This document shows positions 20,826 to 50,241 of a stretch of 64,000 bases of DNA, piece by piece (positions within the stretch are counted from its first letter, which is position 1; each line of letters opens with the position of its first letter). The notes below the pieces were generated by a model. It ran no database searches, was not told the origin of the DNA, and worked only from the letters and a program-made list of their open reading frames with translations. Location: assembly GCA_963803145.1 (NCBI GenBank), contig CAWDLW010000008.1, positions 32,001 through 96,000 on the forward strand. The letters run 5' to 3'. The position numbers and the translations under genes are program-made. This stretch comes from Methanotrichaceae archaeon (GTDB lineage Archaea > Halobacteriota > Methanosarcinia > Methanotrichales > Methanotrichaceae).

Positions 20826-22856
20826 TTATAAAGAGAGTGGCGCCGATTTTCGTGGCCTTAAGCCCTCTGTGGTGGGCTTGGTCCTCGCTAGCGCGAGAGC
20901 AATAATGCTGGCGAATGCCTCCAATAATCTTCTCTGCTCCGGTCGCAAGGGGTGGCCTGATTGCCCTAGGCGCACACCCATGACTCCGAGTGGTATCTCT
21001 TCAGCCTTAAGGGGTAGATAGAACATAGATGCAGATGAGAGGGTTTCTGTTCCGCATCCAGCAGGCTTGCCGTGCTGAAACACCCAGGTAGCCACACCAA
21101 GTTTGCGCTCATCGAATATCAGAGTTTCACCCATCTGGGCTCGTGGGATAAGCTGTCCAGATTCATTGGGGAGCAGAATCAATACCTCGCACTGAAATGC
21201 TCCGGCAATCTCTTTGGTAGCATAACGCAGAAGCTCCTCCAAACCTTCAACCGCCATAAGGTCACGGCTGAATTCATAAAGGGACGAAACAAAACGCTCC
21301 CTTTCACGGGCATTCTCTCCCTGCCATCTGACCATATCTGCCAAAATGCTTGTCACCATTCCTACAACAATGAAAACCAAGAATACAGGCAGATAGCGAA
21401 TATCCCCAAGTGTCATACCGAGCCTCGGCGGCACGAAGAAGAAGTCGAGCGCTATTACTGCCACAAGGGACGTCACCAGACCGGAGCTTCTTCCCCAGGT
21501 CATGGCGCTGTATACTACTGGCAGAAGCAGTATCATGGCAACGTTGATTAAGCCCATATAGTCATGCAATATCCAGCAAAAACAAACTGTGACAGCCAGG
21601 CTCATAAGGCCGCCATAGAACGGTTTTAAGTTCTTTACTCCTTTTTCTTCTTCCTCAGATCCAGGTGAAACAATCGGTTTTTCTATCTTCTGGTCTGCTT
21701 CAGTACCGCCTATAACGAGGACGTGAATTGGGCCGCTTCTGCTGATGACTTCATTAATAACTGATCCTCTGAACCATCTGTTCCAGAAACTTTTTCGCGG
21801 CAGACCAGCGATAATGAGTGTTACGTTATGCTCTCTTGCGAAAGAGATTATTTCATCCGATATTTTGCGTCCGCTTAGAACCTCGACCTTGGCTCCCAGC
21901 TCCTCTGCAAGCATGGTGTTTCGAGCTAGCTGGTCGCGGGCAGCCTCTGTTGGAGGTCTTTCCTGGGGAGATTCGACGTAGACTGCAAACCATTCGGCAT
22001 CCAGATCTGCAGCCATTCTCTGCCCTATTCTCACTAGTCGCTCGGATAATGGGCTGGCGCTGACGCACACCATCAGTGTAGATCCTGCTGGCCAAGGTCC
22101 CAGGATGCCTTGCATCTCCATATAGGAGCGCATATCCTCGTCAACTTTATGGGCCGCGTGCCTTAGCGCCAACTCCCTCAAGCCGAGAAGATTGCCTTTG
22201 CGGAAGAAGCGGCGCATGGCAAGCTCAGCCTGTGCCGGGACATACACCTTGCCCTCCTTAAATCTTTGAATCAATTCTTCGGGAGGCAGATCTACAACTT
22301 CGATCTCGTCTGCAAGCTCCAGCACTTTGTCCGGAAGAGTTTCGCTAACATGGACACCTGTGATCTGATAGACGATATCATTGAGGCTCTCAATGTGCTG
22401 GATGTTCAGAGTAGTGTAAACGCTGATGCCTGCATCGAGAAGCTCTTCGACATCCTGATACCTTTTGGTATGCCGCAGTCCAGCGGCATTTGTATGTGCC
22501 AGCTCGTCTACCAATGCTATCGTCGGATGGCGTGCGAGGACTGCATCAAGATCCATCTCATCGAGCACTATGCCGCCACGATCTATGTGAAGACGAGGAA
22601 TTGTTTCCAGGCCGTTCAGCAGAGCCATGGTTTCAGGCCGACCGTGGGTCTCAGCTATGGCTAAAACAACATCAACACAGGCTTTTTTTAGTGACTGGGC
22701 CTCTTCAAGCATCTGATAAGTTTTGCCGACGCCTGCTGCCGCGCCCAGAAATATTTTGAGATGGCCTCGGCTGCTGCTGGCCTCCTGCTCTTCCTGCTCT
22801 ATATGCTGTATTCTCCGAAGCAGCGCGTCAGGGTCGGGTTGGCACTTATCTATCAA
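20826..22856 (-). CDS. kdpD: KdpD-like sensor lacking the histidine kinase domain (KdpD-N, Usp, 4 TM, GAF)
   Basis: KIFLGAAAGVGKTY, ETHGR, LVDELAHTN, TTLNIQHIESLND and FFRKGNLLGLRELALR; ends right after GAF with no H-box or ATPase boxes. Confidence 0.9.
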   Translation of the reverse strand: MIDKCQPDPDALLRRIQHIEQEEQEASSSRGHLKIFLGAAAGVGKTYQMLEEAQSLKKACVDVVLAIAETHGRPETMALLNGLETIPRLHIDRGGIVLDEMDLDAVLARHPTIALVDELAHTNAAGLRHTKRYQDVEELLDAGISVYTTLNIQHIESLNDIVYQITGVHVSETLPDKVLELADEIEVVDLPPEELIQRFKEGKVYVPAQAELAMRRFFRKGNLLGLRELALRHAAHKVDEDMRSYMEMQGILGPWPAGSTLMVCVSASPLSERLVRIGQRMAADLDAEWFAVYVESPQERPPTEAARDQLARNTMLAEELGAKVEVLSGRKISDEIISFAREHNVTLIIAGLPRKSFWNRWFRGSVINEVISRSGPIHVLVIGGTEADQKIEKPIVSPGSEEEEKGVKNLKPFYGGLMSLAVTVCFCWILHDYMGLINVAMILLLPVVYSAMTWGRSSGLVTSLVAVIALDFFFVPPRLGMTLGDIRYLPVFLVFIVVGMVTSILADMVRWQGENARERERFVSSLYEFSRDLMAVEGLEELLRYATKEIAGAFQCEVLILLPNESGQLIPRAQMGETLIFDERKLGVATWVFQHGKPAGCGTETLSSASMFYLPLKAEEIPLGVMGVRLGQSGHPLRPEQRRLLEAFASIIALALARTKPTTEGLRPRKSAPLSL

Positions 22857-22941
22857 TGCTGGCTTCTCCTTACAGGATCACTTAGTGTAATAGAGCGTGC
22901 TTGATGCATTTCTTCTCATCACAACTGAAATGGCATGGCTA

Positions 22942-23046
22942 TTATCTTTTGTGTTTAACTTTGGCGAGGTCATCAAGGAGTTTCTCCGAGAAGAAAGTCT
23001 TGACGCAAATCAGGCATTTGAACTCTTCCTGATTCGCTTTAGCCAT
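22942..23046 (-). CDS. Putative 34-aa C2H2-zinc-finger-like microprotein (first His replaced by Leu)
   Basis: Manual translation MAKANQEEFKCLICVKTFFSEKLLDDLAKVKHKR; GGAG 8 nt upstream of the ATG. Confidence 0.4.
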   Translation of the reverse strand: MAKANQEEFKCLICVKTFFSEKLLDDLAKVKHKR

Positions 23047-23131
23047 TGACTTTACTCCATCGCCATTGTCTAAACGGAATTTAAGAGTGATATTAAGGGT
23101 AATAGGGAATCTCTGGGTAACGCTTCCCTAT

Positions 23132-23731
23132 TCATCTTTTGCTTTTAGCCAGATCATCCAGCGCAATATTGAGTTTGAGCACATTCACTCTATCTTGACC
23201 AAATATGCCGAATTGAGGATGCTCAATATGTCGGTCTACCAATGCTTGCACTTCTGATTCCGGTAGCCCTCTCGCTTTAGCAACGCGTGATATCTGAATC
23301 TGTGCACCCTGTGGACTGATGTCCGGATCAAGGCCACTACCAGAGGCGAGCACTAGATCTGCGGGCACAGATGCATCTGCAGATAGATTATCTTCGCTCC
23401 TAACTTTTTGAACTCTCTCGCGTACCTCCTCCATGAGCTTGGCACTGGTTGGCCCCAGGTTGCTGCCGCCGGAGTTGCTGCCGTTGTAATCTACAGCAGA
23501 AGGCCGCCCGTGGAAGTAGCCTGGGCTCGTGAAGTTCTGACCAAATAGTTCAGATCCAACTACTGTGCCATTCACATAAATCAGGCTTCCATGGGCCTGA
23601 TAGGGCATTGTTGTATCGGCCACCAAGCTTACGAAAAATGGATAGGCCAGGCTGAGCAAACAAACCATCGCAAACAGCGATACACAGGTCTTCGTCTCCT
23701 TGATAATCTCTCTTTTATCCATTTTTCTCAC
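23132..23731 (-). CDS. kdpC: Kdp ATPase subunit C
   Basis: [44 protein letters not shown] and VNVLKLN motifs. Confidence 0.95.
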
Positions 23732-25764
23732 TCCAGATGCAGCATTACTACCAGTATATCGATCAGCTTGATGCCAATGAAAGGAATAATCAATCCGCCA
23801 AGGCCGTAAACTACAAGGTTATAGCGCAGCAATGATTCAGTTGTAGCCGGCCTATAGCTGACTCCTCTCAAGGCCAGAGGTATAAGTGCAGGTATGATAA
23901 GGGCGTTGAAGATTACTGCCGATAGAACTGCGCTTGTGGGCGTTGATAGGCCCATGATGTTCAATGCTTCCAGCTGAGGATATGTGGCTGCGAACATTGC
24001 AGGCAATATGGCGAAGTATTTTGAGACATCGTTTGCCACGCTGAAGGTTGTAAGGGCGCCTCTGGTCATCAAAAGCTGCTTTCCGATCTCCACTATGTCC
24101 AGGAGCTTTGCGGGATTGGAATCAAGGTCAACCATGTTTGCGGCCTCTCTGGCTGCCTGAGTGCCGGCGTTCATAGCCACTGCCAGATCTGCCTGGGCAA
24201 GAGCAGGGGCATCATTGGTTCCATCTCCTATCATCGCCACCATGTGGCCATCCTTCTGGTATCTTCGAATGACATCCAGCTTGACTTCGGGTCGGGCCTG
24301 TGCCAGGAAGTCATCAATGCCCGCCTCGGCAGCTATAGCTGCAGCTGTTACTGGGTTATCGCCGGTAATCATGACGAAGCGTATACCCAGCTTGCGCATA
24401 TTGTTTAGTCGCTCTTTTATGCCCTCTTTTATTATATCCTTTAATCGAATGGCGCCCAGCATTTTTGGGCCAACGGCCACGACCAGCGGTGTTCCGCCAT
24501 CCCTGGATATTCTGTCTACTGCAGCTTTAATATCCTCTGGAGTACTCCCACCTTTTAATTTCACATAATTATACATTGAATCGGCGGCTCCTTTTCTGAT
24601 CTCCCGACCATCCATGTCTATCCCGCTCATGCGCGTCACTGCGCTGAAGGGTATGAATGTTGAATTCTCAGGAGGTCGAATATCCCTTCCCCGAACACCT
24701 AGAACCTGCTTACACAGATCCACGATGCTTCTTCCCTCAGGGGTATCATCAGCCAGAGAGGAGAGCATTGATGCATCTGCCAACTCTTCATTGGTTACTC
24801 CCTGTGCGGGGATAAACTCTGTTGCCATTCGGTTTCCGAGGGTGATGGTGCCAGTCTTATCCATCAATACCAGATCCACATTTCCTGAAGCCTCTACACC
24901 TCTTCCTGAGAGGGCAAGGACATTATTCTGAAGAAGCCTTTCCATGCCGGCTATTCCTATTGCAGGCAAGAGGCCGCCAATTGTAGTTGGAATTAGGCAG
25001 ACCAGAAGCGATATCAGCACAACTAAGCCTAGGCTCACGCCTATATAGTTAGAAAAGGGCACCATAGTAATAACCACAATAAGAAATATTGCAGTCATTC
25101 CTATGAGAAGTATCTCCAGGGCCCGCTCATTAGGCGTCTTCTGGCGTTTGGCATTCTCAACCATTGATATCATCTGGTCCAGGAAGGTCTCGCCTGGATT
25201 TGCAGTGATATAGATCTTGATCTGCCCTGAGATGACGCGGGTTCCGCCTGTAACCCCACATAAGGTGCCGGTTGGCTCACGAACCACAGGAGCCGACTCA
25301 CCTGTTATAGCTGACTCATCCACAAGTGCAGTTCCTTCTGCGATCTCGCCATCTCCGGGTATTATCTCGCCATCCCTCACTAAGACCAGGTCGCCCTTAC
25401 GAAGTCCCGTTGCAAAGATCTGCTCTATTCTTCCATCGTTCAGCAGTTTGTTCGCCATGGCTTCGCTTCTGGCTTGACGCAAGCTTTCGGCCTGGGCGCG
25501 GCCTCTGCCTTCAGCAAGGCCCTCAGAGAAATTGGCGAAGAGCACTGTGAACCAGAGCCAGATGCTGATCTGTATGTCGAACTTGAAGTTTCTGCCTGTG
25601 AATAAATCGCCTATGGCTATTAGAGTGGTCAGTGCAGCGCCGAGCTCCACCACGAACATAACTACGTTTCGTCGCTGGATGATGGGGTTCAGCTTCAGGA
25701 AGGAGTCTTTGACCGCCTGCTTTACTATATCTGATTGCCAGAGATTTGTAGTCTTGCCTCGCAT
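23728..25764 (-). CDS. kdpB: Kdp P-type ATPase subunit B
   Basis: [22 protein letters not shown] phosphorylation site, [15 protein letters not shown] and ANDVSKYF all intact. Confidence 0.97.
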
Positions 25765-25777
25765 ATGTCATCCCCCT

Positions 25778-27478
25778 TTAGAACGTCCTTCCTGCCGTCA
25801 TCAGCAGATGCTCCAGAATTGGTCCGATCGTCGCTACAGGGAAGAATGCGAGAGCGCTCAATATGAAGACCACGAAGACCACTGTGATTATGAATAGCGG
25901 GCTTGCAACAGGCAGCGTGGCTGCGCTGACTGCTATCTGTCCCTTGCGAGCCATGGACCCGGCAATGGCAATGCCCACGAGTAGGGTGGAATACCTTCCT
26001 AGAAGCATACAGGGCGGGGTCATCAAACATATATATGTACTCAGGACGTTCAAACCTCCCATATATGAACCGTTGTTAATCGATGCCGAAGTGAAAGCAA
26101 AAAGCATCTCCGTTAGCCCGTGGGGGCCTGAGTTGCCTAGAGTTGCAAGACCTGCCACTGATATAATGGCAATGGCAGTAGTAACCAGCGATGAGAAAGA
26201 TGAAAATAGGAATGAAGCTCCGGCCAATATGATTTCACGTAGCTCGAGCTTCTTGCCTATAAGTTCTGGCGTCCTTCCTGTCATGAGCCCTGCCACAAAC
26301 ATGGCTACAATGAAGTAATGCATCATGGCTAGCGGCCCTTCTCCGATGCATCCGAATATCGGCGCTCCAATCACTATGAAAAAGATAATTTGCAATATGC
26401 TGAGGGGCATTAAACTGTCATGCTGAGAGATTGTTGAGCCATTCGCAGGAGCCATTCCAACTAAAATATACATTATATGCTCGAACATGGAAAAGCGCAT
26501 CTCTTTGCCCTCCAGGTTTACGCCGCCCTGAACTCCTAGCTTCTCTAGCAATGGGTTCGGCTGATTCTCAGCATAGAATGGAAGAGGCATGCAAAGCAGG
26601 AACATCACTATCATAACAGAGAAGAGCGCAATTGTTGTATCACGGCTGCGAGACAACTTTCCTATCATGACCACTATTGAAGCTGGCACGAACAATATGT
26701 AGCCCATGGTAAGCCAGCTGTTGAAAGGTGTAGGGTTTTCAAATGGATGTGCCATGCTATTGCCAAAATAGTTAGACCCATCTTCGCAAAACAGCTGATA
26801 TACTATTACCGAAGCAGCAGGCCCTCCCGGTATAAGCTGCACTCCTCCTTCGAGCGTGTGAGCTACAGTATAAGGATCGAAGTTCTGTACAACGCCTTGT
26901 GAGATGAGTGGAAACACTAAGATTAACGAGAGTGGTATCCAGACATATAGGATAACCCTTATCAGATCAACCCAGAAGTTGCCTATAGTTGGGGAGTGCC
27001 TGCGGCTGAAGGATCGTGCCAAGACTATAATAGCCGAAAAACCAACCGCAGGACTGATGTACTCCTGAACATGCGTCCCAAGCATCTGCGACATATAGCT
27101 GAATTCATGCTCACCAGTGTAAGCAATCCAATTGGTATTCGTGATATAGGAGAATGCTATATTCACAGCTAAATCCCATCTAATTGCGCCAAGGCCTTGA
27201 GGATTGAGGGGAAGCACGCCCTGTAGCGATAAAATCACAAATGTAAATATAACACCGATAAACTCAAAGCCCATCAGCGTCCCAATATATTTCTTCCATG
27301 TCATCTCACTCTTCTCATCGATGCCGCATATCTTGTGGATACCTTTCTCGACGGGCCGTAAGATTGGCGAAAGAAGAGTGCGCTCTCCACTGAAGACCTT
27401 GGCCAGGTACCCTCCAAAAGGCACCGCCAATATTATAGTGGCTATAATAATAAAAGCATATGCCAATTCCTGTAACAT
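25778..27478 (-). CDS. kdpA: Kdp subunit A with divergent selectivity filter
   Basis: LPLNP, TNTNW, GNFWVD, HPFENPT, EGKEMRF, GRTPE..GKK, GPHGLTE and GPILEHL scaffold motifs; filter segments altered. Confidence 0.92.
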   Translation of the reverse strand: MLQELAYAFIIIATIILAVPFGGYLAKVFSGERTLLSPILRPVEKGIHKICGIDEKSEMTWKKYIGTLMGFEFIGVIFTFVILSLQGVLPLNPQGLGAIRWDLAVNIAFSYITNTNWIAYTGEHEFSYMSQMLGTHVQEYISPAVGFSAIIVLARSFSRRHSPTIGNFWVDLIRVILYVWIPLSLILVFPLISQGVVQNFDPYTVAHTLEGGVQLIPGGPAASVIVYQLFCEDGSNYFGNSMAHPFENPTPFNSWLTMGYILFVPASIVVMIGKLSRSRDTTIALFSVMIVMFLLCMPLPFYAENQPNPLLEKLGVQGGVNLEGKEMRFSMFEHIMYILVGMAPANGSTISQHDSLMPLSILQIIFFIVIGAPIFGCIGEGPLAMMHYFIVAMFVAGLMTGRTPELIGKKLELREIILAGASFLFSSFSSLVTTAIAIISVAGLATLGNSGPHGLTEMLFAFTSASINNGSYMGGLNVLSTYICLMTPPCMLLGRYSTLLVGIAIAGSMARKGQIAVSAATLPVASPLFIITVVFVVFILSALAFFPVATIGPILEHLLMTAGRTF

Positions 27479-27624
27479 TTTATTCCTCCCTCACGGGTAA
27501 TTGCCAGGTGAATTAGTTTCATTTTGCGAGCTTGATCCAAGAAATGAATCAATGCTTCGATATCCGATGCTCTGGATCTTCGGTTCAGGACCCCCTTTTG
27601 AATTGAAACAAAGCAGCCATATTT

Positions 27625-27789
27625 TCAAGATGCTATCCCTCCTCCGAAGAAAATTGCCACTATCGTCCACCATACAATAAAGAAAGATACAATTATAAAT
27701 ATAGCTCTTATTATTTCTTTACCTTCTGCTTCCGAGATTTCTCGCAGTTCTGCGATAATTCTCGCGTCTTCCTCACTCGAACTAGGCAT
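27625..27789 (-). CDS. 54-aa single-TM protein in the kdpF position
   Basis: Manual translation MPSSSEEDARIIAELREISEAEGKEIIRAIFIIVSFFIVWWTIVAIFFGGGIAS; GGAGTGAGG RBS-like element upstream. Confidence 0.65.
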   Translation of the reverse strand: MPSSSEEDARIIAELREISEAEGKEIIRAIFIIVSFFIVWWTIVAIFFGGGIAS

Positions 27790-28025: not shown

Positions 28026-28050
28026 TTCATAAAAGCTCATAATATTTAAG

Positions 28051-28154
28051 AATATCCCTTAAACTTTAAGAACACTTAAGAATATCCCTTAAACTTTAAG
28101 AACACTTAAGAATATCCCTTAAACTTTAAGAACACTTAAGAATATCCCTTAAAC
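28051..28154. repeat. 30-bp perfect tandem repeat, about 3.5 copies
   Basis: AATATCCCTTAAACTTTAAGAACACTTAAG at 28051, 28081 and 28111, partial at 28141. Confidence 0.97.
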
Positions 28155-28195: not shown

Positions 28196-28753
28196 ATGAA
28201 GGAGGAAAAAAGGATGGACAAAAAACTGATGTTCGTGTTGGCAGCAATCCTTGCTACCAGTTTGAACTGTTGCATGGCAGCGACGTATACTGCCAATGTA
28301 GGCAACTTCAATATACAGGTAACGAGCGATGAGGCCGTACAAATTAATGATAAATTCGCCCCAAGTTTTTACCCCGACTTCACAGCTTATCTTGTTGATT
28401 TGTGGATAGGCAATGATTTGTTTGAGGCGATTATCCAGGATTATGGCACCAGCACGAATGTGTCGGAAGATGCGCTAAAACGTGCAAACCAAATAAGTTA
28501 TCCAATGGAGAATCCCAACGCAAAATCCTGGGTCTATACGGACATTGGAGGCCAGAAGGGATTAATTGCTAATGTCCAGATACCTGCAAGCATCCCCCAG
28601 TTTGAGGCTGTTTATTCGCCTGATGCCTCTGGCAATCAGGGAACAATAATCGTAACAATTACAGCTTATACAGCGGATGAGAAGAAGGTTCGAGGATGTG
28701 CTAAAGACCCTCAAGATTCATCGAATTACCCAGTAATGCTTAAGATAAGGTAG
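28196..28753 (+). CDS. Secreted hypothetical protein, probable 3' frameshift
   Basis: Signal peptide (MDKKLMFVLAAILATSLNCCMA); the +1 frame from 28689 reads FEDVLKTLKIHRITQ*, a more natural amphipathic ending. Confidence 0.65.
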   Translation: MKEEKRMDKKLMFVLAAILATSLNCCMAATYTANVGNFNIQVTSDEAVQINDKFAPSFYPDFTAYLVDLWIGNDLFEAIIQDYGTSTNVSEDALKRANQISYPMENPNAKSWVYTDIGGQKGLIANVQIPASIPQFEAVYSPDASGNQGTIIVTITAYTADEKKVRGCAKDPQDSSNYPVMLKIR

Positions 28754-31459: not shown

Positions 31460-32022
31460 GAAGCAGGCTGCCTGTTCTTCGCATGCGAAGGCGGTATTTG
31501 GCCTTTGAGCTTGATTCCGAGGAGGCAGTACTGCATAAGGAGCTGATGGTGGAGATATATTCATCTCAAGTATCTTTATTCGGGGATTTAGGATCCGCCC
31601 AAAACAGATTGCGGCTGATATCCTTCAACGGCAAATTTGGACTTCTACGCTGTAGCCACAAGCACATAACGGAGACGAGAGTAGTCCTGGCTACAATCTG
31701 TTCGATTGGTGGTATTAGAGCCGCTCTGCGAGTAAAAGGCGTCTCGGGCACCATCAAATCTGCTACAGAAAAGTATATACCGCAACTGAGCCAAATAAGT
31801 GCTGGACAGAACGGAAGAAGAATCGAGCTGGATGAAGTTTCTGGGTGTATTATTCACACCCATGGGCGCGGGATCGATCTTTATCCGGACGATCGCGACA
31901 CGACCAAAGGATCAGATACCAGATACCTGGGACTGACCTCTTTTGATTTATGTGGAGGACATGACGATGCAAATGGCACCCCAGATGGGTTACGACAGGG
32001 CCATAACGGTATTCAGCCCTGA
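31456..32022 (+). CDS. rnp2: Ribonuclease P protein component 2 (Pop5) with C-terminal extension
   Basis: RRRYLAF, SLFGD.G, GLLRC.H and GVSGTIK motifs. Confidence 0.88.
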
Positions 32023-41224: not shown

Positions 41225-42466
41225 CGCAGGGGTAGAGAAGACTCCGGTCTTTAGGCCGGAGATGAATCGTACCCCGCTTCTTCTTTATGCGGCAAGGCTA
41301 TATATACTAACACAGCATAAATAAGCATATGCTTAAAGCGTACAAGTTTAGGCTCTATCCCACAAAAGCTCAAAGAACCAGGATGGAACGAACGCTAGAC
41401 TTGTGCCGATGGACATACAACCAAACTTTGGCATATCGAAAGAATGCATGGGAGAAAGAAGGCAAATCCGTATCCAAATATGAAACTCACAACCTTCTTC
41501 CTCAATGGAAAGTCGATAAGCCTGAGCTTAATGAAGTATTCTCTCAGGCTCTTCAGAATGTTCAGGAACGGGTAGATTTAGCTCTGAAAGCCTTTTTTCG
41601 TAGAGTCAAAACAGGAGAGAAATCTGGATATCCCCGATTTAGAGGCAAAGGCTGGTATGATTCTTTCAGCTATCCTCAGATGGGATTCAAAATCGAAGAT
41701 GGTAAGCTTCATCTATCCAAAATCGGAGATATCAAGATCAAGCTACATAGGCCAATTGAGGGAAGAATCAAGCGTCTAACTGTTCGGAGAGCGGCAACGG
41801 GCAAATGGTTTGCTTGCTTCTCAGTTGAACAAGAAGAAGTGCCTGTACCACCTTGGAAAAATGGATCTCACGTCGGTATAGATGTTGGCCTGGAAAGCTT
41901 CGCTACTCTCTCAAACGGAGAGAAGATCGCTAACCCTCGATTCTTCAGAGAAGAGGAACAGGAGCTCGCCAGAGTACAAAGAAAGCTCTCGAAAGCTCCC
42001 AAAGGAACACCCGAAAGAAGGAAAGCTCTCAAGGTAGTTGAAAGAGTCCATGAAAGAATCGCTAACAAGCGATGTGAGTTTGCTCACAAGATCAGTCGTG
42101 ATCTGGTAGACCGATTTGGCTTAATCGCCTTTGAAGATCTCAATATCATAGGCATGATGCATAACCACAATTTGGCTAAAAGCATCGGAGACGTAGCTTG
42201 GAATATGCTGGTGAACATAACATCCTACAAAGCTGCAAACGCTGGTTCGATGGTAATCCTAGTAGATCCAAGGAATACATCTAAGATGTGTTCAAGATGT
42301 GGCATTCTGGTTGAAAAGGCGCTTTCCGATAGAGTCCATAACTGCTCTCAGTGTGGACTTTCCCTGGACAGGGATTGGAATGCTGCTATAAATATACTCA
42401 GATTGGGATTGCAATCTGTTCGTAAAATCGATAGAAGCCCCGCTCTTTAGGGCGGGGAGCAGTCAC
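41225..42466 (+). mobile_element. IS200/IS605-family element, tnpB only (IS1341-like); left boundary approximate
   Basis: Left hairpin CTCCGGT-CTTTAG-GCCGGAG; right hairpin CCCCGCT-CTTTAG-GGCGGGG followed by AGCAGTCAC; no tnpA. Confidence 0.88.
41329..42450 (+). CDS. tnpB: RNA-guided endonuclease TnpB
   Basis: AYKFRLYP, GYPRFR, RuvC motifs GIDVG / AFEDL / DRDWNAAINI, Zn finger CSRC...CSQC. Confidence 0.96.
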   Translation: MLKAYKFRLYPTKAQRTRMERTLDLCRWTYNQTLAYRKNAWEKEGKSVSKYETHNLLPQWKVDKPELNEVFSQALQNVQERVDLALKAFFRRVKTGEKSGYPRFRGKGWYDSFSYPQMGFKIEDGKLHLSKIGDIKIKLHRPIEGRIKRLTVRRAATGKWFACFSVEQEEVPVPPWKNGSHVGIDVGLESFATLSNGEKIANPRFFREEEQELARVQRKLSKAPKGTPERRKALKVVERVHERIANKRCEFAHKISRDLVDRFGLIAFEDLNIIGMMHNHNLAKSIGDVAWNMLVNITSYKAANAGSMVILVDPRNTSKMCSRCGILVEKALSDRVHNCSQCGLSLDRDWNAAINILRLGLQSVRKIDRSPAL

Positions 42467-43263: not shown

Positions 43264-44079
43264 TTAAGTATCTCTGTTAATGATCATGGGATAGAATCCA
43301 TGAATGCTATCACGTAGAGCCTTTAAGCGTTCGTATTTGCTGCATTCCTTTCTTATTTTAGAGGCTCTTACTGGCAGGTAATTTCTATATTTTATGAAGT
43401 TAGCTATATACAGATTTCTTATCTTTCCACTATCAAGTAACCCAAGCTCGACATAGTACCTGCAAAGACCAATAGCTCCATACTCTTCAAGTCGTCTTGC
43501 GGAGGTCACTACCTTCCTTTGGACCAGGAATCGAGTCTGTCCCTCTGTTCTCAGCTCCTTATCAAAGGCGGCATCCTCAAGGGCAAACTCCTTGAAGCCT
43601 CCTATTTTCATAAATATCTTCTTCGGCACGCAGATGTTTATCCCAATGAGGCTACCATTACCCATTTTCGAATTGAGCCACCAGTAGTAATCGCTAACAT
43701 ATTCGATTATTCTTATCTTGGGGCCTTTGCCTTCAATTCCAAAACCCATTGTAAGTCCGACTACGCCGTCCTCAAGATATTTGTGAACAACTTCAAGGTA
43801 ATCTTTCTTTATCATTGTGTCAGCATCGATAAACACTAAGTACTTCCCTTTAGCAAATTTTGCACCATAATTCCTACCCCACCAAATTCCCCTTTTCTTA
43901 GATATAACAACGATATCTGCATATTTCTTAGCAATTTCAACTGTTCTATCTTCACTTGCTCCATCAGAGACGATTATCTCATACCTGTTGCGGGGAAAAG
44001 TTTGACTGGAAATTGATCTCACACAATCTTCAATATAATTTTCCTCGTTCAGCGTCGGTATAATGACTGAGAACTCCAT
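43264..44079 (-). CDS. Glycosyltransferase family 2
   Basis: SVIIPTLNEE, VSDG.S.D.T, RNYGA, FIDAD, GGF...ED and TSARR motifs. Confidence 0.93.
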   Translation of the reverse strand: MEFSVIIPTLNEENYIEDCVRSISSQTFPRNRYEIIVSDGASEDRTVEIAKKYADIVVISKKRGIWWGRNYGAKFAKGKYLVFIDADTMIKKDYLEVVHKYLEDGVVGLTMGFGIEGKGPKIRIIEYVSDYYWWLNSKMGNGSLIGINICVPKKIFMKIGGFKEFALEDAAFDKELRTEGQTRFLVQRKVVTSARRLEEYGAIGLCRYYVELGLLDSGKIRNLYIANFIKYRNYLPVRASKIRKECSKYERLKALRDSIHGFYPMIINRDT

Positions 44080-44382
44080 AGATACCGACTCCCTAAATGT
44101 ATAGGTTCATTAATTAAACCTTTTGTGCTATTAAAAATCGTTTTAGATTATTCCCTAATTATTCTTCACCCTACATTTCTCATAGATTACTTTGGGGTAA
44201 TACTTTACTACATTGCTAATTAGTGCCCGGGTAAGCGTCATCCAGGATTTTGGAGTTTAGGTTTTCCTGAATCGTTTTTAATGCTCCTCCCGATGATAGA
44301 TATTGCTCAAATCACCGAGAAGCTATTTTTCCTATACAAAGACCTAGTTTCCTATATAAGGAGCGATCGGTGAAGTATCGAA

Positions 44383-44463
44383 AATCGCTACGTAGAGTGG
44401 GGATAACCAAGCCAGGCCAACGGTGATAGACTCAAGATCTATTCTCGCAGGAGTTCAAGGGTT
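44383..44463 (+). repeat. att site: duplicated leader and 5' portion of tRNA-Leu (truncated in the T-arm)
   Basis: 44399-44463 is identical to 51985-52049 (65 bp); the match extends to 44383/51969 with 2 mismatches. Confidence 0.93.
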
Positions 44464-44552
44464 TGGTCTTTCCTGAACGGCGCTAAACACCGATTTTCGG
44501 AATATTTCTTCCTAAAGGCGAATAGATATTGCACAAATATCCCTAGGAAGAG

Positions 44553-45428
44553 ATGAAGATGGCAAAGATCGCCGTTGATTGGAGTATGGATAAAGAGCAG
44601 GATATTAAACCGGCTTTGACGCGATTTAAGAAATACCTGGATAGAATTGGATTTAAAGAGAATACTATTATACTCTATGTGAAGCTGATTAATGCGTATC
44701 TCCTTGAAGCAAAAACAGGTACGCCGTCTACAAAAGATGCAGAAAAGTTCTATAATTCTCTCCATGAAAGAAAGCTATCAGGTAGTGCTATCAACAATTT
44801 TGCGGCAGCTATTATTAAGTATCATAAGATGATAGACAACCCGGTTAAGCTATCTTTCCTAAAGCTGAATAATTCGCTACCTTATTACTTTGATGAAATG
44901 GATGTTCTTAAGATCTTTGGTGCATGTAATAACCTAAAGCATCATTCTATGCTGAAAGTTCTATTCTTTGGCTGTTTAAGATCAGGTGAGTTATGCAACC
45001 TTGATGTTTCTGATTATGATCCCAAAGATTTAACTCTAAGACTTAGAGAAACCAAGAACAAATCCGATGCTTTAACTTTCATCAATGATGATACTGCTAG
45101 AGTTTTGAACCAGTATTTGAGCTTAAGACCGCCTATTAAGATTGAAGGAAAAGAACCTTCATTTGTTACCGATTACGGGCATAGATACACAAATAAAGAG
45201 GTATATCGCGTATTTATGTATTATAAGAAAAAAGCGGGCATTCAGAAAAAAGGCGGGGTTTATTGTTTTTCAAGGCATTCAAGTGCAACTTTGATGGTAA
45301 CTAAAGGTTGCGATCTTAGGAGCGTACAAGCCATACTGCGCCATCGCGATATTCATACAACTCTAAGATATACCCATCTTTGCGATGCTGTAAAAAGAGA
45401 AAAGCATAGCCAATATCTTACGATTTAA
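44553..45428 (+). CDS. Tyrosine recombinase/integrase (XerC/D-like)
   Basis: GCLRSGEL (R), ETKN (K), YCFSRHS (HxxR-like), LRH and TLRYTH (Y). Confidence 0.92.
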   Translation: MKMAKIAVDWSMDKEQDIKPALTRFKKYLDRIGFKENTIILYVKLINAYLLEAKTGTPSTKDAEKFYNSLHERKLSGSAINNFAAAIIKYHKMIDNPVKLSFLKLNNSLPYYFDEMDVLKIFGACNNLKHHSMLKVLFFGCLRSGELCNLDVSDYDPKDLTLRLRETKNKSDALTFINDDTARVLNQYLSLRPPIKIEGKEPSFVTDYGHRYTNKEVYRVFMYYKKKAGIQKKGGVYCFSRHSSATLMVTKGCDLRSVQAILRHRDIHTTLRYTHLCDAVKREKHSQYLTI

Positions 45429-45512
45429 CCTTTATTTTTATCGACATAAATAATTGGACTTATCATATACACCGCTAGCATAAAGATAAAAATGAAAGCC
45501 ATAAGAGATGAA

Positions 45513-47048
45513 TTACTTTATGGACTTACGATAGTTTCCTTTTTTAAACTCTTTAAGCTTTTTATATTCTATTGATTTTTCAACAGCAGAATAAATTATA
45601 TCAGATCCGCCTAATATCCCTGATGTATCTATTAATTGAATCAGCAGTACTTTTAAAAATACACTTAATTTATAGTTTATTCGAGGAAGATCATCATCGC
45701 TAAACGAGTTTCTTCGATTGTTTTCGTCAAAATGTGTGTAGTAATTCCTTGTAGCTACTAATCTTTGAATGATTTTTTCTTCGCCATCGGGTTCATCATC
45801 TATAAGCATTTTAAACCATTTTAATTCTCCACGTCCACAATTGCTAAGCTCTTTTAATCTTGTAGTCAATGAAAATTCATTACTCATAGAAATTTTACTT
45901 TGGAAATTTTTAACCAAATATTCATATTTTTTTAATAATTCATCTTTTGTTATTGAAACACCATTTTCATTTGTTAGAGCTTTTATCAATTCTTCAGGAA
46001 CTGCATTAATTAGAGCATTTCTTATTGGCTTGAATTCACCTGTTTTTAAATATTTTCCCCCATAAACGCGCCTATGAAATGTCTCTATAGCTTGCATTAA
46101 AGTTAAAAAGTATATATGTGGATTCATTGATGGATTGTAAAAGGTTAAAAAGAACAAATCAATAACTGGTGCGATTATATCAGTTTCCTTAAACCAATTA
46201 TTTAGGTCTTTAGTAACAAGTTTATTTGGAAACCTAATAAGATCCTGAAAAGTTGTCTCTATCATAAAGGGGTGAAGATCTTCAATAACTCTAGGATTAG
46301 GTATAGTGTAATAAATATTAACTAGCTCATCAAAAATATTACGATCAGGTTGATGTTTGATTTGAGCGGATAGTTTAATAGGATAAACTGGATAACCCAT
46401 AAGTAACGTCAATAGATTCCCTAGATCAATGATTCTTTTTTGGAACCATTCCCAACTTTGCTCATCCATCGGTTGAATACTTATATTTGATTGATATCTA
46501 ATTTCAACTTCAGTTTGAAGATCGCCTAGAGAATTATGAATGGAAGAGATATGTAAGGTAGATTTAATAGATTCTAAATCCATTTTATAATCTATTGTTT
46601 TACATTTTATGTTATACTCATCCTTATCCCATTTATACTCAAACTTATTATTTATCCACTTATCTAAATAAGTAAAATTTGCGCTTAGGAAAATAAACCT
46701 AATATCATTCTCTTGCAAGAAATGATTGCCAAAAAAGATATACTCGCAAATGAAAATAGATTTGCCACGTTTATTGTTGTAATTTAGTCCATTAGAAACT
46801 GAGCTTTCTTCGTATATTCTAGATAAACGATAAACTGTTACTTTTTTCCCTATATTAAGACAGCCTAACATTATATCGAATTCTCTAAGATCATAATGAT
46901 GCTTCTTACTAAAAACGCCGTTTAATTCGAGTTCTATATAGTTATGCTTGAATTTAATTATTCCACTTAGTGGTTCTTCATCTTTTCCAGGTAGCCACCA
47001 TGTTCCAGAATACTCAAACTCATCTAAGAGGTTAAATTCAATATCCAT
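45513..47048 (-). CDS. ApeA-like protein: ApeA N-terminal domain plus HEPN RNase (putative antiviral)
   Basis: G.WWLP...G.I start, LLTLLMG, QAIETFHR, and HEPN motif RNYYTH near the C-terminus. Confidence 0.8.
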   Translation of the reverse strand: MDIEFNLLDEFEYSGTWWLPGKDEEPLSGIIKFKHNYIELELNGVFSKKHHYDLREFDIMLGCLNIGKKVTVYRLSRIYEESSVSNGLNYNNKRGKSIFICEYIFFGNHFLQENDIRFIFLSANFTYLDKWINNKFEYKWDKDEYNIKCKTIDYKMDLESIKSTLHISSIHNSLGDLQTEVEIRYQSNISIQPMDEQSWEWFQKRIIDLGNLLTLLMGYPVYPIKLSAQIKHQPDRNIFDELVNIYYTIPNPRVIEDLHPFMIETTFQDLIRFPNKLVTKDLNNWFKETDIIAPVIDLFFLTFYNPSMNPHIYFLTLMQAIETFHRRVYGGKYLKTGEFKPIRNALINAVPEELIKALTNENGVSITKDELLKKYEYLVKNFQSKISMSNEFSLTTRLKELSNCGRGELKWFKMLIDDEPDGEEKIIQRLVATRNYYTHFDENNRRNSFSDDDLPRINYKLSVFLKVLLIQLIDTSGILGGSDIIYSAVEKSIEYKKLKEFKKGNYRKSIK

Positions 47049-47279
47049 GTTATATCGGTTGTAGAGGTATATGTTATATAAACGCTTTAAGGCTTGAAAG
47101 TTTTAAAAAATCCGATTGTTTATGCATTTTTTATCGGCAAAGATATTTATCCCTTATCTATCCCGAAGGGTGAAAAGCTCAAGCTGCAAGGCAACGTAGA
47201 AATCAAAAGCTTAAAGCGATGATGGCGGCGGACATAGTCTAAGGCCCGCTTTCCTCTTTCGTCATTCCATTATATGCAT

Positions 47280-48044
47280 CTAGCAATTTACATACTTTAT
47301 GGGATTTTGCGAATTTGCGGTTAGGTAATGTTTAACCGACTTATTTACATATTTGTCGCGTATTTCCTTTTTTGCGATATTACCATCAAATTCCCACCGT
47401 TGAGGATCATATGTGTAAAGCTCATTTGCATCTGGGCGCGTTTTATAAAGTGTCGCTTGGGTTCCGGCCTTATACCACTGTTTTATTTCATATACTTCTA
47501 CAACAATACCTTTGAAAACTGAAAATGCGTATTCTGCACATTCTCGCTTTGGGCCAATTACCCATACTCCGCGTGTAACATCGTACAATGAATCCGCATC
47601 CATTCCATATCGATATAGCTGGTTAATTCTGATAAGTATTGCACGTTCCGTAATATTGGCTTGGTCTTTTGGATCTATGATTTCCCCAATTGCGTTGGTT
47701 CCCATTCCATCGATGTGCATACGGTTTGGCTCTCCATGTTTCTTCGTGCCGGGTCCACGAATGAGGTTTGTGAGCGGTGGGATTCCGATTAAATCAATCG
47801 CGGCCGCCTCTATCATCTTAGCGGTTTCATCATCTAAGTTATAGCGGAGAAATTCCTTAATTGGTTCTTTCTTTTGCGCGCGGATTTCCTCAATTTTCGC
47901 AAGGGTTTTTGCGTTACGCTCTGTATTGTTATCAATTCGTGATTTTCTTCCTTTTCCTATATAGAAAACATTTCCATCTATCGGATTCCTAAAAAGGTAA
48001 ACATAGTAATCGGAATCCTTGGATACTGTTTCCACGCTAGCCAT
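47280..48044 (-). CDS. GIY-YIG nuclease domain protein (LEM-3-like)
   Basis: YVYLFRNP...FYIGKG..SR, IEAAAIDL...LTN...G; C-terminal LY..TRG.W...RWEF.G...NP..Y domain. Confidence 0.82.
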   Translation of the reverse strand: MASVETVSKDSDYYVYLFRNPIDGNVFYIGKGRKSRIDNNTERNAKTLAKIEEIRAQKKEPIKEFLRYNLDDETAKMIEAAAIDLIGIPPLTNLIRGPGTKKHGEPNRMHIDGMGTNAIGEIIDPKDQANITERAILIRINQLYRYGMDADSLYDVTRGVWVIGPKRECAEYAFSVFKGIVVEVYEIKQWYKAGTQATLYKTRPDANELYTYDPQRWEFDGNIAKKEIRDKYVNKSVKHYLTANSQNPIKYVNC

Positions 48045-48929
48045 TTTGGCACCCCATAGACGCTGAAATTGCAGTCCTATTATATATTATCAGTGGTTCA
48101 TTGATCCGCTGTTATCAATTATATGTAATAGCATCAAAGAGCGAAAGGGTATTGTCTAAGGCCCGCTATCCTTTCATTACCCCTATTGGATTACCTTATT
48201 TAAATCTCCAATTTACCGCTAGCTGTAAGATAACTAACCGGGTGATATTCTCTATATCACCCGTCTATTTTCGGGCCTTAAATCGCATTATAGAGCCTTT
48301 TTATGCTCCATAAACCAACGCGGATTCCGCGCCGGTTTTACCAACCTTCACCGAAAACGCAACGATCGCGTTTTCTGAAGAAACCGCAGAGAAACCCGGC
48401 AATGTGGCAACGCCGGGCGGCGCGATACCAACCTTTTTTTTTTAGCTCACCCTATAATCTATCAAGCCTTTGCCGATCCTCGCTTATAGGGCATCCTACG
48501 CAACCTACTTCTAGACAATTTCTAAAGTGTTAGGCTGCAACCCTACCCTTTCAAAGTTGTACATACAAAACCCGTAAGTTCTATATATTACTTTATACAA
48601 CTTGCAGAGCTCCGCAAAATCGGGTAAACTACCCTTCTTCCTAACCCTTCATTCCAGCGCCTATAGACACAAATTCTGCAGCTCGCCTAATATCAATCGA
48701 TCATGGCGTCAGATGGCGATTTTTACAAAATACTTTCCAGAGCGCAAAGGATGCCTTGGTGATCGGAAAAGGTATTTATAAAATACCGCTTTGATTCGAA
48801 GGTACTCAAAAATGAAATGATTTATCTGTTGGTTGTATATACTCTAGTACAAATGGAGTCTTGATCATGTTACCAATTAGGGAATCATTTGGTGAAATAC
48901 TCAAACTAACTTAATTAACTGTTATTTGC

Positions 48930-49868
48930 CTAACTTTTAATTCTAATAATTTTTGCCATTTTAATTTTATCCATAGGCACTACATATAAGAAAGACTGTG
49001 GTGGCGCTGGCTTATGCTTTTCCACCATATAATAGTTCCCATCTTGCTGAGCAACTAGGATTAAGGTGTTGTTTGAAAGCTCTGTTGATGATTCATTTAG
49101 ATCTAATTTAATCTCATAACTCCCTGGAGCCCCCTCTATCAGCTTTATGGCGTCGTAGGCACCAATTTCATTAAAGATGGATGCGTTAATATAAAATAGA
49201 GAAATTAAGGTAAAGATTATAACAAAAATCATAAACTTACTCTCTTTCATTCTATCTAGTTCTAATGAAAAAATTGTTCCACATATACATAAAATAAGGG
49301 AGACAACAGCTAATAATATCAATATAAAATATGTACTAAAAATTTGTGCGATAACGTTCACAAACGCATTCGGTGTATCCCCCAAATGAAAAATTGCAAA
49401 TATATAATCAGTATAATCAAATATAATATATTTATAACTAGTCATACAATAATAAAAAATGAAATATGATAACATAATACTGAAATACAAAACAGTTTCA
49501 TCAAACATCCGCTCATTACGATAAATTGCTCTCCTTTTTTCCAAAGTAGTAGGGCGCATTTTGCCAAAAACATTCGATTTTATATTTAGAAAAAATTTAT
49601 TAAAATTTATAGGGTTTTTACCATAAATTCTACAAATTAAAATTATAATAGATGAAAATCCTATCATAACCACAATATTTATAATAATAATTGGTATTAA
49701 TCTTAATAAAAACTTTGTGTTCAATAAATCAGAATACTGATATGGGAAGGAAAATCTGCCAAAATAAGCATCACTATAAATTAATCCAAATAAATAGAAA
49801 AAGTAAGCTAACAAAGCAAAAATTATTGCGGGTTCTATTAGCCGGTTAATTGATTTCTGATGTGGCAT
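48930..49868 (-). CDS. Multi-TM hypothetical membrane protein (island cargo)
   Basis: About 5 hydrophobic segments, very AT-rich, soluble C-terminal tail. Confidence 0.7.
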   Translation of the reverse strand: MPHQKSINRLIEPAIIFALLAYFFYLFGLIYSDAYFGRFSFPYQYSDLLNTKFLLRLIPIIIINIVVMIGFSSIIILICRIYGKNPINFNKFFLNIKSNVFGKMRPTTLEKRRAIYRNERMFDETVLYFSIMLSYFIFYYCMTSYKYIIFDYTDYIFAIFHLGDTPNAFVNVIAQIFSTYFILILLAVVSLILCICGTIFSLELDRMKESKFMIFVIIFTLISLFYINASIFNEIGAYDAIKLIEGAPGSYEIKLDLNESSTELSNNTLILVAQQDGNYYMVEKHKPAPPQSFLYVVPMDKIKMAKIIRIKS

Positions 49869-50241
49869 AATACCATTTATCCAAAACTTCGCCTCTATTT
49901 CGAGCTGTTGCTATAAAAAGGTTGAGCTAAATGCGATATATTTGGAGACTTCCAGCTACTGTTCACTTATCACTATGAAGTTTTAGAGCATCGGCCCAAG
50001 TGCATTCATTGGTCTTTCGCCAGATCGACAACTTATTAGATTCTTTCTGGCATAAAGTCCTCAGAATAACCAGCTTAACAAAGTGCGAGAATCTCATCCC
50101 CTGCACATATTGGTAAATACGGAATCGGCATCAATGGACTACGCCTTGAATAGTGCGGCCTGATGGTTACCAGTAAACCTATCATAACGCTCTTTTGGCG
50201 TTAATTTTATCCTGAAGCATCAACCATAGTGTTAAGATGCC

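Follow-up and report, generated by a model that had tools for sequence, protein, structure and literature searches.

We analyzed a stretch of 64,000 nucleotides from the genome of a Methanotrichaceae archaeon (positions 32,001 to 96,000 of the forward strand of contig CAWDLW010000008.1, GenBank assembly GCA_963803145.1), which we call the window and to which all coordinates refer unless a contig or locus is named. The window encodes a Kdp-type cation pump. Its channel-like subunit, KdpA (25778..27478, minus strand; 566 amino acids), lacks many of the residues that make up the ion filter and vestibule of E. coli KdpA, and its ATPase subunit, KdpB, has an unchanged ion site. This KdpA belongs to a natural clade, the ED-type, that shares the changes. 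That the window encodes a functionally diverged pump, with decay excluded, is well supported. As to what it carries, we lean towards an importer that would still accept K+, or a monovalent ion of similar size, and whose affinity or selectivity is altered. We expect its profile to differ from that of the canonical Kdp of the same lineage, so it is most likely a sub- or neofunctionalised paralogue and not a plain duplicate.

We number pore residues as in E. coli KdpA, from a phmmer alignment to PDB entry 5mrw_A (E = 8e-119); at the filter, our protein's numbers are the E. coli numbers plus 2. The sites that follow are all on the minus strand. At the mouth of the filter, the P1 loop reads TNTNWI (27125..27142), which gives Q116I. 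The P2 loop (26771..26788) reads CEDGSN instead of GTNGGG and does not fit the canonical pattern G-[TS]-N-G-G-G: G229C, T230E, N231D, G233S, and G234N surround a retained G232. The P3 loop, PANGS (26435..26449), which holds ligand positions of ion sites S3 and S4, has A342P, S343A, and C344N, and G345 is kept. The inner helix and loop of the third repeat, GAPIFGCIGEG (26336..26368), which contribute to the vestibule, the tunnel entrance, and site S4, carry E370A, V371P, G375C, and S378E. None of the canonical Q116, E370, and G375 is found here; these positions are I, A, and C. By the same alignment, the P4 loop NNGS (26066..26077) is unchanged, and R495 (25994..25996), the equivalent of E. coli R493, is kept. 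This protein and all 41 full-length members of the clade retain three glycines of the filter (G232, G345, and G468) and the NNGS of P4.

The original prediction, which was made from the letters of the sequence, had pointed to Q116I, TNGGG to EDGSN, SCG to ANG, and E370A, and the alignment bears out all four, positions included. It was also right that much of the scaffold is kept (NNGS, the R493 equivalent, and the DKTGT, TGES, PTTIGG, and NDVSKY motifs of KdpB are all present) and that there are no frameshifts, as the kdpA reading frame is intact and matches its family over its full length. It had missed A342P, V371P, G375C, S378E, N137D, and T340M.

There is no question that the protein is a KdpA. 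It matches model positions 2-548 of the 548 in Pfam PF03814 (559.5 bits, cut-off 22.6), which was the sole family returned by the Pfam scan, and it scores 503.5 bits against TIGR00680 (cut-off 387.7). An AlphaFold model built from a clade-only alignment (predicted template modeling score 0.73; mean predicted local distance difference test score, or pLDDT, 65.7) has the KdpA fold with its four M1-P-M2 repeats, with low confidence in the filter loops. It resembles 7nnp_A, 5mrw_A, and 6hra_A with template modeling (TM) scores of 0.83-0.85 (0.84 for 7nnp_A, at 37% identity).

The same residues recur in relatives. Among the 120 best database hits, [E/L]DG, ANGS, and GAPxxGC occur together in 44 (the query's own record and 43 others, at 49-89% identity); the other 76, several of which are named Methanothrix or Methanomethylovorans, are canonical and at most 48% identical. 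Full-length members of the clade number 41, with identities as low as 49%, and the recurrence of the pore changes in them is far beyond chance. We compared those 41 with 187 other KdpAs (76 near canonical sequences and 111 representatives) and defined a signature position as one that is fixed in the clade (at least 90%) and rare elsewhere. There are fourteen of these: N137D, V216G, T230E, N231D, L257G, 296P, T340M, 342P, E370A, V371P, G375C, A387F, I398T, and 420S, where a bare number means that the residue outside the clade is too variable to name. Seven of the fourteen lie inside the 54 residues of the motif windows of the original prediction (hypergeometric p = 1e-4).

In the P2 loop, the changes that define the clade are G229C/A, T230E, and N231D: position 231 is D in 41/41 members and N in 174/187 other KdpAs, position 230 is E in 39 members and L in 2 (T or S in 166/187 others), and position 229 is C or A in 36/41 (G in 181/187 others). 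Position 375 is C in all 41 members and in none of the 187 others, 169 of which have G, and position 371 is P in all 41. N137D is found in 38/41. Other positions vary within the clade. Position 116 is Q in 18 members, I in 13, T in 4, V in 4, and F in 2, as compared to Q in 179/187 others; position 378 is E in 13 members, which belong to subtype a, and T in 25 (V in 88 and S in 42 of the 187); and position 114 is E in 11 members, which belong to subtype d (N in 148/187 others). The equivalent of R493 is R in 38 members and K in 3. Both sets are invariant at G232, G345, G468, N467, and S469.

This comparison also shows that some of the substitutions in the original prediction are less unusual than it had supposed. 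The change from SCG to ANG is real, and A343 and N344 are present in all 41 clade members, but C344N is ordinary, as N is the commonest residue outside the clade (59/187), and A343 also occurs in 20/187. Similarly, A370 is fixed in the clade (41/41), but residue 370 is variable across the family (E in 139/187 others), and the sections of PMC12629597 that we draw on here and below describe it as neutral in about 50% of organisms. Finally, the loss of the two glycines G233 and G234 holds for the window but not for the whole clade: the type-d paralogue keeps GGG.

In a maximum likelihood tree of KdpA (IQ-TREE, quick search, LG+G4; 80 rows, comprising 32 clade members, 15 near canonical sequences, and 33 representatives), the 32 ED-type rows are one side of a single branch, with a Shimodaira-Hasegawa-like approximate likelihood ratio test value of 100 and a stem length of 0.39. 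The clade is nested in a 100-supported group together with canonical methanogen-type KdpAs. Together with the 44 of 120 best hits that carry the signature, this shows that the changes mark a conserved clade, as the original prediction had proposed to check, and not a private allele. We recognize four subtypes: subtype a has CEDG[SAG]N[YF]F and includes the window's KdpA and one member named Methanotrichaceae; subtype b has AEDGLAWS; subtype c has CEDGNAWSG with TNSNYQ and includes one member named Chloroflexota; and subtype d has TNTEWQ and CEDGGGFFNV.

When we searched a profile of 40 members against 1.84 billion 50%-identity representatives, we found one clade representative (P0046, 981 bits), and the next match scored 623.5 bits. 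The signature is present in 1/127 representatives of at least 500 amino acids, and the clade is a single 50%-identity cluster. Single changes such as GENGG, GDNGGG, and SSDGGG occur sporadically outside it. The databases consulted here all label ED-type members as ordinary K+-transporting KdpA ("K+-transporting ATPase A chain"). A full-text literature search, whose scope did not extend to supplements or to most subscription journals, found no account of a KdpA clade that has these residues in its filter; structural papers could include ED-type sequences in their supplementary family alignments. PMC9128505 has no mention of "kdp" or "potassium", and PMC13304083 mentions kdpA/B only as abundant genes.

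To quantify selection, we computed the ratio of nonsynonymous to synonymous substitution rates (dN/dS) for pairs of genes by the Nei-Gojobori method. Type-a kdpA has a dN/dS of 0.07-0.15 (7 pairs; one further pair is identical and gives no ratio), and the window's gene and its closest orthologue give 0.10, at a dS of 0.71. These values are comparable to that of a canonical pair (0.11), so the ED-type kdpA of subtype a is under purifying selection. Types d and b give 0.13-0.22, and kdpB gives 0.05-0.17.

The rates of divergence of KdpA and KdpB tell us more. We compared pairs of operons from 71 canonical bacterial loci and from archaeal loci. (The canonical controls came from a contig scan with family-generic peptides, which gave 80 loci; all of these encode canonical KdpA, at no more than 47% identity, among the matches listed.) If the KdpBs of two canonical operons are 70-75% identical, then the KdpAs are on average 63.5% identical (minimum 55.6, n = 270), and if the KdpBs are 75-80% identical, then the KdpAs average 68.5% (minimum 62.1, n = 168). 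In contrast, for pairs of ED-type and canonical operons with KdpBs that are 71-77% identical, the KdpAs are only 45-55% identical. Types a and d also differ in this way from each other (KdpB 71-74%, KdpA 50-55%), while within type a the relationship is normal (KdpB 84%, KdpA 80%). KdpA diverged much faster than KdpB on the stem of the clade, and again between subtypes, and then came under ordinary constraint. Fast divergence of KdpA on the stem is the pattern that is expected for functional divergence.

KdpB (23728..25764, minus strand; 678 amino acids) is a canonical P-type ATPase subunit, with 1001.7 bits against TIGR01497 (cut-off 527.9) and 868 bits against E. coli KdpB (6hra_B). Its motifs are at residues 154 (TGES), 259 (PTTIGG), 302 (DKTGT), and 578 (NDVSKY). 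We compared 11 KdpBs that are linked to clade KdpAs with 76 that are linked to canonical KdpAs. The equivalents of D583, K586, P264, T265, and S162 are unchanged in 11/11 clade-linked KdpBs, and so are DKTGT, TGES, and PTT. F232, which lies where the tunnel is narrow and hydrophobic (as described in section 8 of PMC12629597), is kept in the window's KdpB by alignment to 6hra_B. The unchanged site argues, we infer, for a K+-like monovalent ion. The original prediction had included a divalent cation among the candidate substrates, which looks unlikely because D583 and K586 are retained.

A few positions in KdpB are nevertheless specific to the clade. D300N (residue 295 of the window's KdpB), which is seven residues before the phosphorylated Asp, is N in 11/11 clade-linked KdpBs and D in 76/76 canonical ones. 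The others are A82S, at the end of M2, and a change from L to M just before GDGTND.

The cluster (20826-27789, minus strand) consists of a small open reading frame (ORF), kdpA, kdpB, kdpC, and a KdpD-like gene, all of them intact. Following kdpB is kdpC (23132..23731, minus strand; 199 amino acids), whose GTG start overlaps the kdpB stop; it scores 245.5 bits against PF02669 and 223.6 bits against NF001454 (cut-off 178). The last gene (20826..22856, minus strand; 676 amino acids) encodes the Pfam domains KdpD N-terminal, Usp, the DUF4118 membrane part, and GAF, and the Pfam scan found no HisKA or HATPase kinase core, so it is not a KdpD histidine kinase. Its match to PRK10490 is partial (positions 5-647 of 895, 588.9 bits, under the cut-off of 1123), and its score against NF038185, a non-kinase sensor, is also under the cut-off (358.5, cut-off 550). 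In relatives, such a kinase-less KdpD-like gene is the last gene of type-a, type-d, and canonical operons alike. There is no kdpE adjacent to the window's operon.

The original prediction had also asked about a second, canonical kdp operon. The genome has two more kdp operons, but one of them is type d, and the canonical one is recognized from a stub and its KdpB. The type-d kdpA (C12:3384-5045, locus L001/L120) is followed by kdpB, kdpC, and kdpD'. The same contig starts with the last 15 codons of another kdpA, followed by kdpB and kdpC (C12:1-2694); the stub is 14/15 identical to the C-terminus of the canonical KdpA of a relative (G010), and the KdpB next to it is 97% identical to the canonical-linked KdpB of that genome. 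Very probably, to judge from these sequences, the genome holds canonical, type-d, and type-a operons. It also has a TrkH-family gene, and we found no Kup in it.

In G010, a canonical kdpABC lies directly upstream of a type-d kdpABC-kdpD', and in another relative (G072), a type-d kdpABC is followed in tandem by a type-a kdpABC-kdpD'. The type-d kdpA on C12 has a 2-nucleotide deletion near codon 30 relative to its orthologues in G002 and G010. Its product shares 75-77% identity with theirs, as compared to 89% between the two of them, and the corresponding KdpBs are 94-95% identical. Either decay of this copy or an error in the assembly may be the reason. The starts of C12 in our genome (G000) and of contig C2 in G002 (L115) are both breaks within about 100 base pairs of where kdpA meets kdpB in the presumed canonical operon, and so the canonical kdpA is missing from two genome assemblies of the genus. 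Repeats, mobile elements, or variation among strains might have caused the breaks.

Among the 105 genomes of the family that we searched, 35 have a KdpA match. Clade genes were confirmed by their motifs in 7 genomes: three from the window's genus (G000, G001, and G002), three from a second genus (G009, G010, and G011), and one from a large genus (G072) in which a single canonical copy is usual. Because the operon is collinear across 7 of the family's genomes, we rejected the possibility that the window is an assembly chimera. In a sample of 401 genomes from the phylum, the window's genome had the only clade-level match, and the other match (G885) is canonical. A search of 401 genomes from a class of Chloroflexota with P0030, at E ≤ 1e-150, gave no matches, but as there was no positive control in that set, this is uninformative about the clade's distribution. 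Metagenome loci of subtype b adjoin a gene whose first residues resemble, by eye, bacterial DnaE, and this supports putative bacterial hosts and transfer between domains for that subtype.

Some type-a loci depart from the usual gene order. At L128:14541-15794, L124:8649-8786, and L136:6751-8004, an Amt-family gene (Pfam Ammonium_transp, 324 bits) lies directly after kdpC, where the KdpD-like gene would otherwise be. These loci represent one lineage, with Amt proteins that share 97-98% identity. The window genome's own amt genes are on contigs C25 and C26 and not beside kdp. G001 has an extra gene, for a 332-amino-acid membrane protein, between the type-a kdpC and the KdpD-like gene (L135:6033-7031). 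And on a metagenome contig of 2181 base pairs (L134), a clade-type kdpA (with ANGS and GAPIFGCIGTG) is split into four ORF pieces, which may reflect a pseudogene or a poor contig.

How might the pump work? Published simulations and mutants give the frame. According to the portion of a molecular dynamics study that is cited here (bioRxiv 10.1101/2025.03.04.641403), the ligands of S3 are the backbone carbonyls of N112, T113, T230, S343, C344, N466, and N467, and the ligands of S4 are oxygens of A342, S343, G374, S378, and N466. E370 and R493 flank S4, and E370 sits at the tunnel's entrance (PMC12629597, in the sections cited). In E. coli KdpA, changing residue 116 or having a neutral residue at 370 raises the Michaelis constant (Km); for E370Q, the Km of the ATPase rises from 0.023 to 0.76 mM (same sections of PMC12629597).

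We propose an ATP-driven cation importer made up of the small membrane protein, KdpA, KdpB, KdpC, and the kinase-less KdpD-like sensor. As in KdpFABC, the cation would enter the filter of KdpA and then pass through the vestibule and the inter-subunit tunnel to the unchanged site of KdpB (D583/K586), and ATP hydrolysis would drive it inward. The backbone-carbonyl cage of S3 is probably kept, given the conservation of G232, G345, G468, N112, T113, N466, and N467. The inner S4 site and the entrance of the vestibule are rebuilt, by A342P, S343A, S378E (T or E in the clade), E370A, V371P, and G375C, and the P2 loop has gained two acids, T230E and N231D. In subtype a, the mouth (Q116I) and the outer glycines of P2 are altered as well. 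As we read the alignment, the negative charge of E370 may have moved to the ring formed by the filter and S4, by way of E230 and, in subtype a, also of E378. The relocated charge would alter how strongly the ion is held and which ion passes on. The idea leans on an analogy, in that we take position 230 to correspond to Thr75 of KcsA.

Several observations weigh against this account. Every filter loop of the AlphaFold model has a pLDDT below 50, so the relocation of charge is drawn from the alignment to E. coli KdpA and the published ligand lists alone. Two of the 41 clade members have L at position 230, as does locus L123, so Glu230 cannot be an indispensable ligand everywhere. Subtype d carries a third acid, N114E (11/41 members), and an acidic filter fits some other ion better than K+. 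The Amt gene directly after type-a kdpC in one lineage hints at NH4+. If all of them served one ion, then the retention of two or three pumps whose filters differ this much would call for an explanation that the sequence does not supply. And the canonical kdpA of this genome falls in an assembly gap, so its presence is something that we infer.

The original prediction had favored neofunctionalisation over decay, and we agree as far as divergence goes: the gene is intact, with the low dN/dS given above, its clade is conserved and monophyletic, canonical operons lie alongside it in relatives and probably here as well, and KdpA evolved quickly on the stem. We are less convinced that the ion changed. 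The core glycines of the filter, the P4 loop, R493, and the KdpB site are unchanged, and the KdpD-like gene is as in canonical operons. It is possible, if doubtful, that the substrate of the ED-type family as a whole is not K+, with ammonium as the likeliest alternative, and that its four or more subtypes diversified in ion preference.

Ammonium ranks second, after K+ with altered affinity or selectivity, as the ion that the pump might carry. If the ED-type pump were an ATP-driven ammonium importer, then the carboxylates could act as hydrogen-bond acceptors that favor NH4+, and a promiscuous KdpB would accept it. The closest precedent is E. coli G232D, in which one acid in the same loop allows coupled transport of NH4+ and Rb+, and whose authors call KdpB "relatively promiscuous" (PMC12629597, in the sections cited). 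D231 in every clade member, E230 in nearly all, and E378, at an S4 ligand position, in subtype a (13/41) all fit with this, as does the Amt gene beside type-a kdpC. Also, relatives keep a canonical Kdp alongside, so their supply of K+ is covered. On the other hand, the adjacency to Amt comes from a single lineage and is not seen in the window's genome, G232 itself is unchanged, and the operon closes with a KdpD-like gene of the potassium-sensor type, like canonical operons. Active accumulation of NH4+ also risks futile cycling, as NH3 leaks out. On balance, we consider an ammonium pump unlikely, and we favor K+ or an ion of its size.

It seems less probable still that the ED-type is functionally equal to the canonical pump, with compensated neutral drift, and that the paralogues are kept for dosage or for particular conditions. 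It would fit that the core glycines, the P4 loop, and R493 persist, that other KdpAs often have N344 and an uncharged residue 370, and that the KdpD-like gene does not differ from that of canonical operons. But the identity of KdpA is below the minimum for any canonical pair with matching KdpB identity, fourteen positions are fixed differently, with half of them in filter windows, and the residues replaced include the near-invariant N231, G229, G375, and Q116. The raised Km of E. coli E370Q also weighs against it.

We would give slightly less credence to a pump for Na+, Mg2+, Ca2+, or a transition metal, in which the acidic filter would be a site of high field strength. In P-loop channels, rings of acids select Ca2+ or Na+. 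The two new acids of P2 are present in all subtypes, along with N114E in subtype d and N137D in most members, and the outer glycines of P2 are gone in subtypes a, b, and c. But the KdpB site is unchanged in 11/11, including D583 and the positive K586, and F232 of the tunnel is kept. Furthermore, ATP-driven import of Na+ is of no obvious use, and E. coli G232D had very little activity with Na+ (PMC12629597, in the sections cited). As for decay of the window's kdpA, the type-d gene of the same genome, with its 2-nucleotide deletion, does suggest that kdp paralogues can decay in this lineage, but we rejected a pseudogene: this ORF and all of its partner genes are intact, its dN/dS is low, and the signature residues of the filter are kept across 41 members, which leaves this explanation with almost no credibility.

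The small ORF at the start of the operon (27625..27789, minus strand; 54 amino acids) encodes a protein that starts with a charged part (LREISExEGK), crosses the membrane once as a helix, and has a tail with GGGxAS. An ORF with LREISE is present in the window and in 16/16 other type-a locus rows that we searched (some rows are the same organism twice), 60-135 nucleotides upstream of kdpA, and there is none upstream of type-b, type-d, or canonical kdpA. Ten copies of the protein have 20 invariant columns. Two of the small proteins (54 and 62 amino acids) had no Pfam match at E ≤ 10, so they are not identifiable as KdpF. When the small protein was modeled together with KdpA, the interaction prediction score from aligned errors was 0.65, as compared to 0.00 for the best control; the three runs agreed in at least 96% of contacts, and the partner pLDDT was at least 76. 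The mark that we used was reached by 58/80 solved complexes and 2/110 mismatched pairs. The predicted contact is with KdpA helices 412-444 and 481-511. This score may reflect likeness to solved KdpF-KdpA complexes. The model supports binding to KdpA, and we consider the small protein to be a candidate for a type-a-specific small subunit in a KdpF-like role.

Upstream of the operon, between it and a divergent gene (28196-28753, plus strand), there is a perfect 30-base-pair tandem repeat (28046-28154; 3.6 copies, 100% matches), which could be an array for binding a regulator or a plain variable repeat. When the window and three related loci were scanned against Rfam, the only matches were two tRNAs, both in the window, and none of the kdp operons had a riboswitch nearby. 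A search of sequencing runs listed no RNA run, which weighs neither way on expression. The divergent gene encodes a protein of about 175-185 amino acids whose N-terminal hydrophobic segment resembles, by eye, a signal peptide. No Pfam family matches it, and an AlphaFold model (pLDDT 80.6) had no PDB match at E ≤ 0.001 (best TM score 0.39). The protein belongs to a narrow family of 46 clusters, most with identities of 64% or more. Its gene adjoins type-a kdp operons, being divergent upstream in G000, G001, and G002 and after amt in L128 and L136; we did not find it at the type-a locus of G072. Farther away, an ORF (41311-42450, plus strand) whose start resembles TnpB/OrfB of the IS200/IS605 type by eye is followed by a stretch of low GC content with several ORFs (44000-50000; GC 0.35, as compared to about 0.45 elsewhere). 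Together, these may be a mobile island.

How does the window's pump compare to known systems? It shares with E. coli KdpFABC the order kdpA, kdpB, kdpC, the fold of KdpA, the four P-loops with G232, G345, and G468, NNGS, R493, and, in KdpB, DKTGT, TGES, PTT, D583, and K586. It differs in having CEDGSN for GTNGGG and in Q116I, A342P, S343A, E370A, V371P, G375C, and S378E. Also, the operon has no Pfam KdpF but has the 54-amino-acid upstream protein instead, its KdpD-like protein has no kinase, and it has no adjacent kdpE. The E. coli mutants G232D, Q116R, and those of E370 alter the same loop, mouth, and vestibule, and G232D relaxes selectivity to Rb+ and NH4+ (PMC12629597, in the sections cited). 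In the window's KdpA, however, G232 is kept, the acids are at 230 and 231, and residue 116 is hydrophobic and not cationic. Moreover, those mutants are single laboratory lesions, while the changes in the ED-type arose in nature, occur in combination, and have been conserved by selection.

The nearest relatives in the tree are canonical Methanothrix-type KdpAs (the G010 and G056 copies and P0047-P0123), which come from the same family of organisms and have the same form of operon, with a kinase-less KdpD; in some genomes the canonical and ED-type operons are in tandem. These KdpAs have TNTNWQ, GTNGGG, and GEVIFGG and are 45-48% identical to the window's, while the KdpBs are 74-75% identical. 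More distantly, Trk, Ktr, and HKT share the architecture of four M1-P-M2 repeats (the model of the window's KdpA has a TM score of 0.44-0.48 with KtrB), but they are not coupled to a P-type ATPase, and none of the family scans of the window's KdpA reported them. HKT proteins are a precedent in that changes in filter residues switch selectivity from K+ to Na+.

To our knowledge, KdpFABC is the only pump that joins a filter like that of a K+ channel to a P-type ATPase, and we know of no probes of its selectivity so far besides laboratory mutants. The ED-type is a natural and selected subfamily in which G229, T230, N231, Q116, G375, and ligands of S4 and the vestibule are replaced together while the KdpB site is untouched. 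It should allow tests of which positions set affinity and selectivity, of how promiscuous the tunnel and KdpB are, and of whether there are Kdp-type pumps for ions besides K+. If the substrate is not K+, then this would be the first chimera of a P-type ATPase and a channel with a new specificity, and a natural experiment in retuning a K+-channel-type filter by moving carboxylates into the S4 ring. Because databases label the ED-type as ordinary K+-transporting KdpA, claims of "high-affinity K+ uptake" from metagenomes, for acetoclastic methanogens and their bacterial neighbors, may be partly wrong. And the arrangement of canonical, type-d, and type-a operons in tandem, as seen in a few genera of Methanotrichaceae, suggests a division of labor in cation homeostasis.

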